This document shows, piece by piece, positions 47,772 through 53,441 of a stretch of 64,000 nt of DNA; the stretch's first letter is position 1, and each line of letters starts with the position of its first letter. Where the stretch lies: the NCBI GenBank assembly GCA_963604715.1, contig CAVCSV010000005.1, positions 1,516-65,515 of the forward strand, given 5' to 3'. The position numbers and the translations under genes were made by a program. This DNA comes from Limosilactobacillus gorillae (GTDB lineage Bacteria; Pseudomonadota; Alphaproteobacteria; CAAGCB01; CAG-977). The notes beneath the pieces are model-generated. The model saw only the letters and a list, made by a program, of their open reading frames with translations, ran no database searches and was not told the origin of the DNA.

Positions 47772-50700
47772 ATGGCTGAAGAAAACAAAGTCGAAAATAT
47801 CGCGAGTTCATTTGAAGACTTTATGAACGGTCTGGGAAAAACAGAGGAAGAACGCGACAAAAACGGCAATCTGCTGTCGTCGAAAACGCTGGACGGCAAC
47901 GGTAATGTTTTGTACTCGTTCGTCTACACTTACGACGAATCGGGGCGGCAAACTTCCAAAACCACCTTTGACAAAGACGGAAAAGCGGAAAAACGGGTGG
48001 AAAGCACCTATGACGAAAACGGATTCAGAACCACGCGGCGTTTTGACAAGGACAACGAATTGACATCCGAAAACCGTTACGACGACAAAGGGCGCGAAGT
48101 GGCGTCGCTCAGCTATTACAACGGCGAAATGCGGCAGATTTCTTCCTATTCTTACAAGGAAAACGGGGATGTGGAACAGGAAGTCCGCTATGAAATGCGC
48201 AACGGTAAAATGCGCATTGCGGAACAGGCTTTCTATGACGACGCTTTGACCCGTCATTCCCGCCGCTACGGTGCGGACGGTTCGGTCAATCTGGAATACC
48301 AGCCCAAAGGCGCGTCGTTTCCTTACGGTGTTTCCGAACCGACCAAAGACGATTATGCGCGCGATGCCGAACGGGCTGAGGAAAATCTGAAAAATTATCA
48401 AGCCGAGGCGGCTTTCTATAACGACAAACCCGCCCCCGTCAAAGATGCATGGATTGCGTCGTTTGAACCGAAAACGGCTGAGGAACCCGCCAAAGAAGAA
48501 CCCGTAAAGGAAACCGTTGCTCAAAGCGAACAATCCGAACCCGAAAAGCAAAGCAAAACCCGCGACAGGCAGTTCACCGATTCGGAAGGATTCGCGCACA
48601 CGGTCAGCTATGATGACGACGGTCGTGTCGTTGCCAATAAAAAATTCGACGAACGGGGCAACCTGATTGGCGAAGGCATTTACGAAAACGGCGAATTCAA
48701 GGGAACGAAAGAGTATTCCGAAAGCATCGTCGGGGACAAAACGGTTGTTGTCCGCGACACGCAAGACCGTGTTGTATCCGACCAAACCTTCGATAGAAAG
48801 GGAAACCTGAGGCGGGAAGGGCTGTACGAAAACGGCGAACACGTCGGGGCAAGAACGTATACCGAACTTGGCGGAAGAATGCGCATCGTTACCACCGACA
48901 ACGACTTTATGACCGTGTCGGATCAGACGTTTGACAAAAACGGCAACCTGATTAACGAAGGCATTATCCAAGACGGCATTGTAACGGGGTCGAACGAATA
49001 CTATACGGACGACGAAGGCTTTAAACACGTTTTTGAAAGTGACGCGCACGATTATCCCGTTTCGGACAGAAAACTGGATTCGGACGGCAAATTGCTGGAA
49101 GAAAGACTGTATGACAACGGAACGTATGCGGGGCGGCGCGAATACTCGGTCGTGGACGGTGTCGAACAGGTTGTCGAATATGACGCAAATGACAACGTGA
49201 AAACTCCCGAACCCGAAAAGCAAGCCGAAACAACGCTTGAAAACACGATTCAAAACGGCGACGAACCGAAAGCCGAAGAAAACACCATTCAGAACGGAGC
49301 AGAGCCGATGACGGAAGAAAATACGATTCAGAACGGTGACGAACAAGTCGAAACCGTTTATGAAAACAATTCGAACGAAAAACAGTATATCGATGCCGAG
49401 GGATATTCCCATTCCGTCAGATATGACGACAACGGACGGGTAACCGCCGATTTGAAATACGGTCAGGACGGCAAACTGGCGGGACAGGATTTGTATCGTG
49501 ACGGGGAACGCATGGGGACTGTGGAATACGCCTACGGACAGGATGGAAGCAAGTCGATATACCGCTATGACGCTCAAGGCGTTCAGACAAGATACGACAG
49601 CTACGATGCAAACGGGCGGCATGTTTATACGTCGGATTTCCGCGATGGGAATCCCAAAACGAGTGTCGCGTTTGACGAAGAGGGACGTCCCGAAACCATT
49701 TACAGATTTGTTCAGGGGACAAACGCCATATCCACCAATATCAGTTATGACGGCGATTCGGTTTACAAAACCGTTCATTCCCCCGACGGTCAGCTGTTGC
49801 GCACGGAAACGACCCGCGACGGCGTTCTGTCCGTTGTCGATTACGTTTCCAAAACGGCAAAAATGACATCTTTTGACGATGAAGGGCGGGTGCAGAGCTG
49901 CGTCGGCTACGAAATCCAAGGCGAAGAACTGATTAAAACGGACGATACGGTCTACACCTATGAGGGCGCGGAAGTCCGACAGGTTCAATCCCGCACTTAC
50001 GAAAACGGTCGAATGACGGAAGCTTATACGGGGCTTCCGTGGGGCGACGGAAACGATACGACGTATTATTTCGAACAGGACGGTTCTTATACGGAAAGCA
50101 CTGCCGACAAAACCAAAAAACACAGCGCGGTCAAGCTGTTCGGGAAAACCCTTCGCACGCCGGAACAGCCCGAATTTAAGGAAAATCCGCTGGAAAATAT
50201 GCCGTTTGTCGGTGTTGACACATCGGTGAAGCCGCAAATAAGCGAAGAAGAACGGGAATCTTATCGGAAACATTACGGCGCCGCTTGGAACAATTACGTC
50301 CTTTTGGATGCCGCGACCGTAAAAAAAGATGTTTTTACCTCCGAAGGGATTTGGTTTGCGGACAGAGGGGAATACGGCCGTCAACAGGATAAAGAGCTGT
50401 TGGATAAAACAGACGAAAAGTTTGTCCGAAACGAAGCGGTGATGGATACCGCCGAAAATATCTTGCCCGAACCGCAGCCGAAACGGCAGTCCGAACAAAA
50501 CGACGTCGAAGAACAGCCCGTTCAAGATACGGAACAAAAGGACAAAGAGGAAAACGCCGAACAACACGGCGAAAAACAAACTCAGGACGACACCCGTTCC
50601 CATGATGAGGAAGTTTTGCAAAACGACGTCGAGGATTTGGGCTGGGACAACGCGGACAATCAGACTTTGGACGCTGAAACCTGCGCCGCCGAAAACGCGG

Positions 50701-52088: not shown

Positions 52089-53441
52089 ATGACAGACAAA
52101 CCCGATTGGGAAAACAAAACGCCGCGCAAAAAAAGTTCGGAAAAAGATCCAAAACGTTTGAAAGCGGCTTGGGAACAGCTGATGCGGCGGCAGGACGCGG
52201 CTTTTAACGCGCGGCATGTCAGCAAATCCGCCGAAGCGATTTCGTCTGTCAAAATCGTCAATGACGGCGAACAGGGCGAACGGGTGGAAATCAGCACGGT
52301 TGCGGGCAGAAAAATCAGCGACGGCGGCGAAAAATCGGTCGAATTCGGCGCCATGGCGGCGGAAGCGAAATCGCAAAAGAATTCGTATTCCATCGACGCT
52401 TTGATTCAAGAGGTCAAAGAGCACGGATTCGAAAACGTCGCCGAAGATTTGCCGCCCGATGTCGCGCGTGCTTTGAAAGCCGCCTGCGAACGTTCCGGCG
52501 TTAATCTGGAAGCGGCGGAGGAACGCAAAAAAGAAGCGGCGTTTCAGGCGGCGATAATGGCGAAAGACGCCGCCGAACGCAAGGCGGAACAGGCGGAACG
52601 GCAGAAAAACCACAAACCGCCTGCGGCGTTCAGTCTGGATAAAGAGTTGAAGCATCTGATGGCAATGTCCAACCGCATCGCCATCAACACGCGCCGGTCG
52701 CAAACCAAACTGCATCTGACGAAAAGCCGCATGGTTTCCGAACAGCGCAAGCGTTTTGAAGCGGAAAAATCAAACGTCCGCAATACGTTCAACGAAATGC
52801 AAATCGACGCTTACCGCTCTGAATTGTTCGGTCCGAAAGGAAAAGCCAAAATTATCGAACAAAAGCTGAAAGAAGGAACTCCTTTGACCCAATCCGAACA
52901 GGCTTTGTGGAATAAAAAGGAACGCTACGGCTTGCAGGCTCAGCCCGAACGGGAAAATCCGACCCCCGAACAAATCAGGGCGCGCAGTCAGATGTCCGTT
53001 CGCGACTACAACAAAGACCTGACGCGCCAATACAACGAAGCGGTCGCGCGCAAAAAAGCTATTTTCACAACAAAAGTCAAAGCGTTGGAAACGGCGTCCG
53101 AACAAATTCAGCTGCATTTGGCGCACGGCAAAAAAATGGATGTCGACAGGGATGTTTTGGAAGAATACGCCGTCAAACTGATGCCGACGCGGGATCAGCT
53201 GACGACGAACAATTTGCGCAAAACATGCGCCAAGCTGCAAAAACACAAAACGAAACTGCATTCGACCGTTGTTCAAGTGCGCGAACGGCGCAAAAACGAA
53301 ATCGAAGAAAAACTGCAGAACGCCATGAAAAGGGGCGGCGGGCGGAGTGTACAGCCGTTGCTTCATGAAAAAAAGGAAAGGCGGTTGCCTTTGACGGTGG
53401 AATTGCTGCAGCAGGCGCGGTTGTCGGGAAAAACGCGTTAA
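52089..53441 (+). CDS. basic coiled-coil protein (450 aa), likely co-transcribed with the preceding giant gene
   Basis: 12-nt gap to the upstream stop; Lys/Arg/Glu-rich with heptad-like segments. Confidence 0.45.
   Translation: MTDKPDWENKTPRKKSSEKDPKRLKAAWEQLMRRQDAAFNARHVSKSAEAISSVKIVNDGEQGERVEISTVAGRKISDGGEKSVEFGAMAAEAKSQKNSYSIDALIQEVKEHGFENVAEDLPPDVARALKAACERSGVNLEAAEERKKEAAFQAAIMAKDAAERKAEQAERQKNHKPPAAFSLDKELKHLMAMSNRIAINTRRSQTKLHLTKSRMVSEQRKRFEAEKSNVRNTFNEMQIDAYRSELFGPKGKAKIIEQKLKEGTPLTQSEQALWNKKERYGLQAQPERENPTPEQIRARSQMSVRDYNKDLTRQYNEAVARKKAIFTTKVKALETASEQIQLHLAHGKKMDVDRDVLEEYAVKLMPTRDQLTTNNLRKTCAKLQKHKTKLHSTVVQVRERRKNEIEEKLQNAMKRGGGRSVQPLLHEKKERRLPLTVELLQQARLSGKTR

Follow-up and report, generated by a model that had tools for sequence, protein, structure and literature searches.

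Polyvalent proteins combine several unrelated effector domains in one polypeptide, including MPTase, methylase-helicase, ArdC-N and primase domains, and are encoded by phages, plasmids and ICEs near structural or transfer genes (Iyer et al. 2017). The Pfam family LPD7 was established on polyvalent proteins that conjugative elements and phages encode (PMC5512222). Plasmids and ICEs carry the canonical LPD7 proteins, whose genes lie beside virD4 or which form fusions with a relaxase, a primase or MuF. LPD7 is widespread on conjugative plasmids, and relaxases and plasmid primases are classic protein substrates of conjugative type IV secretion systems (T4SS). It belongs to a set of about 40 'large polyvalent-protein-associated domains' to which, to our knowledge, no function has yet been assigned. 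Nothing on the function of LPD7 was found in the literature; one plasmid paper labels an 'lpd7C' gene a relaxase, without evidence.

Among T4SS effectors, the Bartonella Beps consist of a variable N-terminal payload and a C-terminal delivery unit, in which a folded domain shared with conjugative relaxases (BID, a four-helix bundle) is combined with a basic tail; this effector family seems to be derived from conjugation proteins in Alphaproteobacteria (PMC8740702). The Xanthomonas X-Tfe proteins have variable N-terminal domains and a conserved C-terminal alpha/beta domain of ~120 aa, the XVIPCD, which binds the all-alpha domain of VirD4 (PMC8740702), as well as a hydrophobic, Arg-bearing tail without acidic residues. 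They carry enzymatic toxin domains, and immunity genes are adjacent. Arg-bearing, positively charged C-termini are needed for VirB/D4, Bep and X-Tfe translocation (PMC8740702). D/E-rich C-terminal domains are found in VirD4-type coupling proteins, and those of effector systems have been proposed to broaden the effector repertoire (PMC7434980). A further group of interest comprises RHS/YD and MORN_2 (YwqK-type) repeat proteins, which contain short (Y/F)DxxG beta-hairpin units. In the gene pair described here, A-B, such units are present in A, and the pair is chromosomal, in contrast to canonical LPD7 proteins, with a fixed place after pgk.

The gene pair and the repeats of A

The pair is located between pgk and uup in the 64-kb stretch of DNA that was analysed (the window); its upstream neighbours are gap and pgk, and its downstream neighbour encodes an ABC-F/Uup ATPase. 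ORF A (47772..52076, + strand) encodes a protein of 1434 aa (162 kDa, pI 4.8). Its start is the ATG at 47772, with AAAGGGAG just upstream, and its stop codon occupies 52074-52076. A longer ORF beginning at the GTG at 47724 is possible; the MAE... start is the one used by most aligned homologues. ORF B (52089..53441, + strand) encodes 450 aa with a pI of 9.8 (K+R 20%, D+E 14%) and ends in ...ELLQQARLSGKTR-COOH. The A stop codon, an overlapping Shine-Dalgarno sequence (AAGGGAG) and the 12-nt spacer before B are contained in 52074..52088 (+ strand). The spacing is 12-15 nt in four related loci (L001, L002, L006, L007) and 63 nt in L003. The intrinsic terminator of pgk, a 15-bp stem with a U-run, lies at 47595..47632 (+ strand; dG -25.2 kcal/mol, z -6.8 against 200 shuffles). 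Consequently, the pair would have its own transcription start within 47633-47771.

Neither protein has a signal peptide, membrane segment or hydrophobic N-terminus; the Kyte-Doolittle 19-residue mean peaks at 0.83 in A and at 0.25 in B. A and B are made in the cytoplasm, and any export must consequently be Sec-independent. The layout given in a first-pass annotation, with the pair between pgk and uup, B beginning 12 nt after the stop of A, and no signal peptide, was confirmed. A protein in a public collection (P0001) is 100% identical to ORF A and unnamed, and an exact look-up of ORF A among contigs gave no match.

The N-terminal part of A contains ~19 clear YD/MORN-like hairpin repeats. A profile of the (Y/F)DxxG unit detects 18 units in the first 800 aa, compared with 0-1 in 30 shuffles. 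The first-pass annotation had counted about 25 YwqK-type repeats; the repeats are real, and their number approaches ~25 when looser 'YENGxxxG' units are included. The expected hit to Pfam MORN_2 (PF07661) remained below threshold: A scores 19 bits against a gathering cut-off of 29.6, with its best stretch at aa 290-306. Pfam RHS_repeat likewise remains below its cut-off (17.2 against 22 bits; best stretch aa 29-67), and NCBIfam YD_repeat_2x lies above it (18.9 against 15.8 bits; aa 268-288). MORN_2 is matched in three relatives, with E values down to 3e-6.

The repeats form three blocks on the + strand, set apart by disordered acidic linkers. Block 1 (47844..48341, aa ~25-190) consists of YD-type beta-hairpin units such as YTYDESGRQT and STYDENGFRT, six by the repeat profile. 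Block 2 (48564..49211, aa ~265-480) is built from MORN_2-like units (FDxxGNLIGEGIYENGEFKG). Its copy number differs among homologues, and it is missing altogether from P0002, of a strain that is 96% identical across the remaining protein. The following acidic linker (49239..49344, + strand) holds the three ENTIQNG(D/A)EP repeats already annotated, which lie at aa 490, 503 and 516 and correspond to 2.7 copies of a 39-bp tandem in the DNA; relatives carry other acidic repeats at this position. Block 3 (49380..50141, aa ~537-790) again contains YD-type hairpin units, six by the repeat profile, and, where a homologue has it, shows the highest conservation of the N-terminal blocks. It is followed by an acidic linker (50169..50723, + strand, aa ~800-984; 26% D+E, net charge -27) of low conservation, which aligns poorly among homologues.

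The LPD7 module, its paralogue and the basic C-termini

The stretch TLEECMTLVRLGQQKGWTS... in A is part of a match to Pfam LPD7 (PF18821) that covers aa 1050-1113 (nt 50919-51110). The match has an E value of 1.7e-9 and a score of 38 bits, above the curated Pfam cut-off of 27 bits, so the resemblance to a polyvalent-protein module stated in the first-pass annotation is real. All wider-family representatives (31/31) also match LPD7. A shows the LPD7 core pattern (beta-hairpin, then helix-GW-strand-G-helix-strand; ..V.....GW.......G...F.......A...G), and the AF2 secondary structure concurs. The match is the core of an extended module (aa 985-1134; 50724..51173, + strand), which is predicted to fold into an N-terminal helix, four beta strands and an alpha-beta-alpha-beta-alpha arrangement (AF2, pLDDT 76, pTM 0.69). 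This extended module is common to 34 clusters (E<1e-10) and has the invariant motif VRLGQxKGWTS...QMYLA...GM. Across canonical and extended members, module residues G94, W95, G102 and G118 are invariant or nearly so, whereas the additional N-terminal helix and a PPYASPF segment distinguish the extended module from the canonical one. A homologue search with the LPD7 alignment returned just 24 short proteins.

The module is followed by a basic helical tail (aa 1135-1434; 51174..52073, + strand), which ends in ...ARVLAASQNRNR-COOH, the last 12 aa being encoded by nt 52038-52073. The region of aa 1125-1434 has a pI of 9.4, and the tail is modelled as long helices with pLDDT ~90. A homologous helical tail of ~300 aa in both proteins and the YD/MORN-like repeats are further differences from canonical LPD7 proteins. 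Only LPD7 and the repeats were recognised in A, and searches of Pfam, NCBIfam and PHROGs found no enzymatic or other polyvalent-type domain. The lack of an enzymatic domain separates A-B from polyvalent proteins: A does not combine several unrelated effector domains, and the pair is not encoded by a phage, plasmid or ICE near structural or transfer genes. The polyvalent-protein-like character annotated for the C-terminus of A holds for its LPD7 domain and not for the protein as a whole. Profiles of A and B found no meaningful match among PDB sequences, Foldseek of a 460-aa C-terminal model against the PDB found nothing below E 0.1, BFVD yielded no match, and PHROGs returned spurious short matches only. 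Within the window there is no further LPD7-like ORF; the ORF after virD4 (20374-21417, minus strand) is without LPD7.

Judged by sequence comparison, ORF B and the C-terminal half of A are diverged paralogues, B consisting of an LPD7-like domain and a helical basic tail. B has no Pfam or NCBIfam match, and pairwise BLASTP against A is non-significant (best E 0.014). The paralogy is based on profile-profile comparison with shuffle controls. The diverged LPD7-like domain of B (aa 50-147; 52236..52529, + strand) has GF in place of the GW motif. When the B family was aligned with a broad LPD7 alignment using hhalign, a probability of 86%, an E value of 4.8e-6 and a score of 45 were obtained, compared with scores of at most 15.7 in 15 column shuffles. 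A second region (aa ~208-335; 52710..53093, + strand) is homologous to aa ~1220-1329 of the A tail and shares a GQPLT...Y.I...P motif with it. For this match, hhalign gave a probability of 54-71% and a score of 42-50, whereas 30 shuffles and a reversed control did not exceed 22.4; the match is colinear with that to LPD7. B had earlier been described as a basic coiled-coil partner; it is basic, and its relation to A makes it more than a putative coiled-coil protein.

The A and B families have in common a C-terminus in which hydrophobic residues are followed by basic ones. A ends in ...SQNRNR and B in ...SGKTR, and the last 20 aa carry a net charge of +3 and +4, respectively. Among the A-family representatives, 15/34 have a terminal Arg and 10 more a terminal Lys, while the terminal residue is Arg in 10/10 aligned B-family sequences, several of which are nearly identical. 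Basic, Arg-terminated ends are also shared with plasmid LPD7 proteins, two of which end in ...SRSR and ...ELTR. A terminal Arg is found in 23/42 canonical LPD7 matches and in 15/23 short LPD7 proteins, many of the latter ending in RxRxR. Overall, terminal Arg occurs in 44-65% of LPD7 proteins compared with a background of 5.3%, which was determined from 131 other ORFs of the same loci after filtering out A/B homologues and shadow ORFs. Net charge over the last 20 aa amounts to +2.0, compared with -0.5 in the controls.

Conservation of the locus, and T4SS genes in the window

The A-B pair occurs only in a single lineage of Alphaproteobacteria, which are uncultured and mostly from the human gut. 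Related loci were viewed with 8-10 kb flanks, and all of them lie on gut alphaproteobacterial contigs. Wherever the upstream flank was recovered, which was the case for 20 of the 25 loci on chromosomes, gap-pgk lies directly upstream of the pair. The pair is not adjoined by an integrase, relaxase or phage gene, and no phage or plasmid record with a close relative was found. The fixed place after gap-pgk and the common origin of the contigs show that the pair is inherited vertically and is not carried by a mobile element. As a counterpoint to an effector role, this place beside glycolytic genes in every relative also fits a core cellular role.

The pair diverges fast at this fixed locus. Identity among relatives is 31-79% for LPD7 and 24-70% for B, while GAPDH and PGK remain at 95-100%. 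Relative to L010, identity is 99% in the LPD7 region and 94% in the tail, but only 44% in the N-terminus. The N-terminal repeat blocks of A are gained, lost and swapped, even from strain to strain, and members of one 90%-identity cluster (that of the homologue P0006) range from 886 to 1461 aa when shorter, probable fragments are left aside. In comparison with L001, dN is 0.13-0.49 for A and B and 0.007-0.06 for gap, pgk, uup and PBP1A; dS is ~1.1-1.2 for the A tail and B and 0.45-0.5 for uup, PBP1A and a hydrolase, with dS near saturation in most comparisons. Positive selection was not detected in A or B, the gene-wide dN/dS being below 1 (0.14-0.41 where dS is least saturated).

On conjugative plasmids, an LPD7 gene directly follows virB11-virD4, with an 11-nt overlap of the virD4 stop in L008 and a distance of 10 nt from it in L009. 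LPD7 is fused to a MobA/VirD2 relaxase in P0062 and to PriCT_2+Toprim_3 primases in P0084, P0089 and P0092. The window itself encodes a VirD4-type coupling protein of 784 aa (21431..23785, - strand; Pfam T4SS-DNA_transf, TraG-D_C, TrwB_AAD_bind). It has a D/E-rich C-terminal extension of ~85 aa; its identity to plasmid coupling proteins is <=35%, with matches that end near aa 700. Two tandem TrbL/VirB6-like genes (28568..31631, + strand) encode 529 and 484 aa and match Pfam TrbL with E 1.2e-8, above the cut-off, and E 1e-3, below it. These and virD4 are the only recognised T4SS genes within the 64 kb, where VirB4 and VirB8-11 were not seen. The ORFs adjoining virD4 have no family matches. VirD4 is separated from A-B by 24 kb, which include genes for an RNase J-like protein and an aldo-keto reductase, gap and pgk.

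Functional interpretation

The pair is best read as a type IV secretion effector pair, in which LPD7 and the basic tail form the delivery module and the variable repeats the payload. The evidence is circumstantial and consists of the contexts in which LPD7 occurs, the basic tails with a terminal Arg, the VirD4 with its acidic tail and the VirB6-like genes of the window, and the layout of A; the probability of this reading is put at roughly 0.45. LPD7 is otherwise found in proteins injected by conjugative plasmids, which makes A and B probable cargo of the organism's own T4SS. The layout of A is that of VirB/D4 effectors, with a conserved C-terminus and a hypervariable N-terminus. In the proposed mechanism, LPD7 and the basic tail would be the recognition and translocation module for the VirB/VirD4-type T4SS of the organism, and the VirD4 coupling protein, with its long acidic C-terminal extension, would be the partner to which the tail is presented. 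The variable repeat region of A would act as the payload and bind to a target within the recipient cell. B may be a co-substrate without payload, or may associate with A by way of the homologous helical tails. The first-pass annotation had proposed a second T4SS substrate pair; this part of it is retained, for a chromosomal pair at a fixed locus. Its other suggestion, a nutrient- or toxin-sensing scaffold, found nothing in support, and a lack of LPD similarity combined with clear orthology to a housekeeping protein was not what the analysis returned.

With the Beps, A shares the combination of a variable N-terminal part with a C-terminal unit in which a folded domain also present in conjugative relaxases is joined to a basic tail, whereas LPD7 is predicted as a beta-sheet and alpha/beta unit and has no sequence relation to BID. 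The likeness to the X-Tfe proteins concerns the variable N-terminal part, the conserved C-terminal alpha/beta domain and the hydrophobic, Arg-bearing end free of acidic residues. However, XVIPCD has an alpha-alpha-beta-beta-beta topology and other motifs, A is without an enzyme domain, and its neighbour B is a paralogue rather than an immunity protein.

Several other explanations have to be weighed against an effector role. The pair could consist of proteins that derive from conjugation, have been domesticated and are retained in the cell, with LPD7 as a DNA-, relaxosome- or primase-associated binding domain on basic-tailed, nucleic-acid- or nucleoid-binding scaffolds kept for a chromosomal function. 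The fusion of LPD7 to DNA-processing enzymes (relaxases and primases), the strong basicity of B and of the A tail, and the presence of the pair in every recovered locus within a housekeeping neighbourhood are consistent with this, and the predicted LPD7 fold, which matches no solved structure, leaves room for DNA binding. Such a role is nevertheless considered unlikely, as it leaves unexplained the 112-kDa acidic YD/MORN repeat region, the gain and loss of whole blocks between strains, a dN 5-20 times faster than in neighbouring genes, and the conserved terminal Arg with the hydrophobic-basic C-terminus shared with plasmid LPD7 proteins. Alternatively, A and B might have a structural or organising role particular to this lineage, for example as a scaffold at the pole, cytoskeleton or envelope. 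The repeats and coiled coils would then contribute to assembly, and weak constraint on disordered regions would account for the fast divergence. Scaffold proteins typically contain long helices, disordered acidic linkers and repeats, and the fixed locus, its vertical inheritance and a dN/dS <1 throughout agree with such a role. However, the sole recognisable domain comes from a family otherwise tied to conjugative transfer genes, and the conserved parts are the folded LPD7 module and the extreme C-terminus, which points to a specific recognition function there. The dS of the A tail and B, about twice that of the flanking genes, and the swapping of N-terminal blocks between near-identical strains would also be unusual for a housekeeping scaffold, and this explanation appears quite improbable.

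That A might be an RHS/YD-type polymorphic toxin and B its immunity protein is suggested by the YD-like repeats, by the small ORF directly after A, and by the RHS_repeat in a weak match (P0021). This interpretation was rejected, as A contains no RHS core motif (DPxGL / PxxxxDPxG, no DPxG[LWF]), and it is largely refuted. The ~19 hairpins in three interrupted blocks are too few for an RHS shell, and no toxin family was matched. The variability is reversed compared with polymorphic toxins, the C-terminus of A being conserved and its N-terminus variable, and B, a basic protein of 450 aa related to the C-terminal half of A, is not the unrelated protein expected for immunity.

Beyond the effector reading of this pair, a wider and more doubtful proposal can be made. 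LPD7 with an Arg-terminated basic tail might be a general, hitherto unrecognised VirD4 recognition and translocation module, a third class beside BID and XVIPCD, which one gut alphaproteobacterial lineage would have domesticated from conjugation into a chromosomal, hypervariable effector pair at a fixed locus. A general delivery module would explain why LPD7 is found in relaxases, plasmid primases and polyvalent proteins as well as in genes after virD4. If LPD7 and the basic tail do form a delivery module, LPD7 would be a sequence tag for T4SS cargo in uncultured bacteria, and the pair would be a concrete case of a conjugation protein turned chromosomal effector. If the proteins are secreted, this fast-diversifying pair would provide a first handle on the cell interactions of these little-known gut Alphaproteobacteria.

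Architecture of the A–B locus

ORF A, on the forward strand, encodes 1434 amino acids; its ATG start codon (47772) follows AAAGGGAG, and its stop codon is the TAA at 52074-52076. ORF B (52089-53441, forward strand, 450 aa) begins 12 nt past this stop codon, which is overlapped by its Shine-Dalgarno sequence, AAGGGAG. Upstream of the pair lie genes for an aldo-keto reductase and a 257-aa orphan, followed by gap and pgk, while those for an ABC-F/Uup ATPase, an alpha/beta hydrolase and PBP1A lie downstream. A strong intrinsic terminator (dG -25 kcal/mol, z -6.8) lies after the end of pgk (47581) and indicates that the pair has its own transcription start. 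Neither a signal peptide nor a membrane segment was found in the two protein sequences. The ORFs, their spacing, the pgk and uup flanks and the missing signal peptide all agree with the first-pass annotation, which had described a repeat protein with a partner gene.

The N-terminal part of ORF A is built from (Y/F)DxxG beta-hairpin units in three blocks (aa about 25-190, 265-480 and 537-790), with little-conserved acidic linkers between and after them. A self-built profile detects 18 such units, compared with 0-1 in shuffled sequences. Three ENTIQNG repeats (aa 487-525) are encoded by a 39-bp DNA tandem. Repeat libraries give borderline results: YD_repeat_2x scores slightly over its cut-off, and RHS_repeat and MORN_2, the latter being the family originally proposed, fall under theirs. 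An extended LPD7 module (aa 985-1134), delimited by a Pfam match and a structure model, follows. With 38 bits, its Pfam core (aa 1050-1113) exceeds the cut-off of 27, so that the earlier lead to a domain of polyvalent proteins was right; ORF A itself is not a polyvalent protein. Modelled alone, the module is predicted to form a helix, four strands and then an alpha-beta-alpha-beta-alpha arrangement (pLDDT 76, pTM 0.69), and this model has no match at a meaningful level among solved and viral structures. The remainder is a basic tail (aa 1135-1434; pI 9.4 over aa 1125-1434), predicted to consist of long helices (pLDDT about 90). The motif AMPER occurs once, as GHAMPERRAN within the last 30 residues (about nt 51984-52013).

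Judged from profile comparisons, ORF B is a paralogue of the C-terminal half of ORF A. Residues 99-335 of the B family are colinear with A 1061-1329 (E 3.7e-5); the alignment scores 42-50, and none of 30 column shuffles exceeds 22. B 50-147 also matches a broad LPD7 alignment including plasmid members (probability 86%, E 4.8e-6; score 45, at most 16 in shuffles). The relationship is not detected by pairwise BLAST of B against A alone. Consequently, the locus is a tandem duplication of a unit made of LPD7 and a helical tail, one copy of which bears a large repeat-rich N-terminal extension.

Modular evolution at a fixed site

There are only about 20 close homologues, all LPD7-positive and none with a protein name. 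The two genome matches, HGM16787 and UBA2903, are MAGs bearing the label 'Alphaproteobacteria bacterium', and both metagenome loci whose record names give a source are from the human gut. An exhaustive HMMER search with the C-terminal profile of ORF A yielded 34 clusters at 50% identity (E<1e-10). These clusters have the extended LPD7 module in common, and often the tail, while their N-termini are mosaics whose modules include YD repeats, repeated LP(A/S)VRGxxMPER motifs, a repeated 'WEFK...NLRxP...TDKPL' unit of about 75 aa, and low-complexity PT- or QE-rich repeats. The 75-aa unit (...ITGxDWEFKxxxxSGLGxxNLRxPxTxE...G.KL..V.TDKPL.LT.EE) is covered by no Pfam family; five relatives (P0020, P0032, P0034, P0054, P0055) have 1-5 copies of it, placed N-terminally or in the middle of the protein, and it is absent from ORF A. 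Many relatives (P0031, P0033, P0040, P0042, P0044, P0050) carry repeated copies of the shorter motif, as LP(A/S)VRG(N/Q)xMPER, in their N-terminal linkers; the AMPER of ORF A is related to this motif, which could be a short linear motif.

Every chromosomal locus retrieved carries a B homologue behind the A homologue. Directly upstream, gap-pgk is found in 20 of 25 loci, that is, in all those with the upstream flank visible. It is retained even at locus L003, where endonuclease III replaces uup downstream. This constancy shows vertical inheritance of the pair at a fixed site and not residence on a mobile element.

At loci with GAPDH and PGK of 95-100% identity to those in the window, the figures fall to 31-79% for the LPD7 module and 24-70% for B, and the N-terminus of ORF A is mostly unalignable. 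Nei-Gojobori estimates between the window and the related locus L001 give dN and dS of 0.49 and 1.94 for the A N-terminus, 0.13 and 0.80 for its LPD7, 0.29 and 1.12 for its tail, and 0.22 and 1.24 for B. The values for uup, PBP1A and gap are 0.04 and 0.51, 0.06 and 0.49, and 0.007 and 0.15, respectively. Gene-wide dN/dS is below 1 throughout (0.14-0.41 in less saturated comparisons); positive selection is therefore not demonstrated. Across most of loci L001-L026, dS is very low for gap and pgk (45305-47581; 0.10-0.31), compared with 0.45-0.75 for uup, PBP1A and the hydrolase and 0.54-1.6 for the reductase and the 257-aa orphan; possible causes are recent recombination or, as these genes may be highly expressed, a strong codon bias.

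In the nearest relative, L010, identity to the window reaches 99% over the LPD7 region and 94% over both the tail and B, yet drops to just 44% over the N-terminal part. The homologous protein P0002 matches aa 480-1434 of ORF A at 96% identity but is missing the MORN_2-like block entirely. Protein lengths range from 886 to 1461 aa in the 90%-identity cluster to which another homologue, P0006, belongs, with shorter probable fragments set aside. ORF A thus has a conserved C-terminus and an N-terminus that is shuffled block-wise.

LPD7 contexts and secretion genes

Relaxases and plasmid primases are proteins delivered into recipients by conjugative T4SSs. Canonical LPD7 contexts, drawn from weaker exhaustive-search matches and tblastn of plasmids, include a MobA/VirD2 relaxase bearing LPD7 twice and PriCT_2+Toprim_3 primases, one of which also has MuF_C. 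In conjugative MPF_T plasmids of sphingomonads and Xylella, LPD7 forms a stand-alone gene directly after virB11-virD4, overlapping the virD4 stop or separated by a gap of at most 10 nt. One plasmid LPD7 protein whose gene follows virD4 is WP_004213228.1 of pLA2. The paper defining LPD domains gives LPD7 no function (PMC5512222).

A terminal Arg is found in 15 of 34 A-family representatives (Lys in 10 more), in all 10 aligned B-family sequences, several of them nearly identical, in 23 of 42 canonical LPD7 hits and in 15 of 23 short LPD7 proteins, many ending RxRxR. The background among 131 other ORFs of the same loci is 5.3%. Two plasmid examples end in ...SRSR and ...ELTR. Proteins of both families end in a hydrophobic and then a basic stretch, together about 12 residues long, with a mean acidic count below 0.4 in the last six. 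An Arg-bearing, non-acidic C-terminus behind a recognition domain is needed by Agrobacterium VirB/D4 substrates, Bartonella Beps and Xanthomonas X-Tfes (PMC8740702).

The window encodes a VirD4-type coupling protein (21431-23785, reverse strand) whose final 85 or so residues are nearly all D or E, e.g. ...EEEEDEDDPAEE...DDDDDEDYDIDDLEEDDYDEEEDEDENSEDG...; matching plasmid coupling proteins (at most 35% identity) lack this extension. D/E-rich C-terminal domains are known in VirD4-type coupling proteins, and those of effector-translocating ones have been proposed to broaden the range of effectors (PMC7434980). The forward strand carries two tandem VirB6/TrbL-like genes, at 28568-30157 and 30177-31631 (529 and 484 aa). 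This arrangement is reminiscent of Rickettsiales, which have multiple VirB6 paralogues. No other VirB component was recognised within the 64-kb window.

Large proteins of unknown function are unusually numerous in the window. Four adjoining ORFs (334-375 aa each; 23915-28439), which share the strand of virD4 and lie immediately upstream of it, have no Pfam match even at E<=1. Three very large ORFs, at 4071-6614 (reverse, 847 aa), 8759-12901 (reverse, 1380 aa) and 34410-38222 (forward, 1270 aa), have no significant family match; possibly one of these is what the first-pass annotation hinted at as a 'first' substrate pair. An autotransporter with a beta-domain (16196-18727, forward) and a FliI/T3SS-type ATPase (2015-3358, forward) show that the organism possesses further export systems.

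Possible roles of the pair

The best-supported reading, with a probability of roughly 45%, takes A and B to be T4SS cargo, and the earlier substrate proposal is plausible. The LPD7 domain and basic tail would act as a delivery unit, analogous to the BID and XVIPCD delivery domains of Bartonella Beps and Xanthomonas X-Tfes, while the variable hairpin-repeat region of ORF A would be a target-binding payload. ORF B may accompany A as a co-substrate that lacks a payload, or pair with it via the homologous helices. Domain membership, the paralogy of B and A, the fixed locus, the rapid and modular evolution, the C-terminal bias and the occurrence of VirD4 and VirB6-like genes are established observations; secretion, the function of LPD7 and an interaction of A with B are inferred.

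An intracellular, DNA-associated role for both proteins is unlikely, and their being a structural scaffold is quite improbable. The hairpin repeats might also be read as those of an RHS toxin, with ORF B as its immunity protein; this is very hard to credit, since ORF A lacks the RHS core and reverses the RHS pattern of variability, and ORF B is paralogous to ORF A. Taken as candidate T4SS cargo, the A–B pair provides a testable hypothesis on LPD7, a widespread domain of unknown function.
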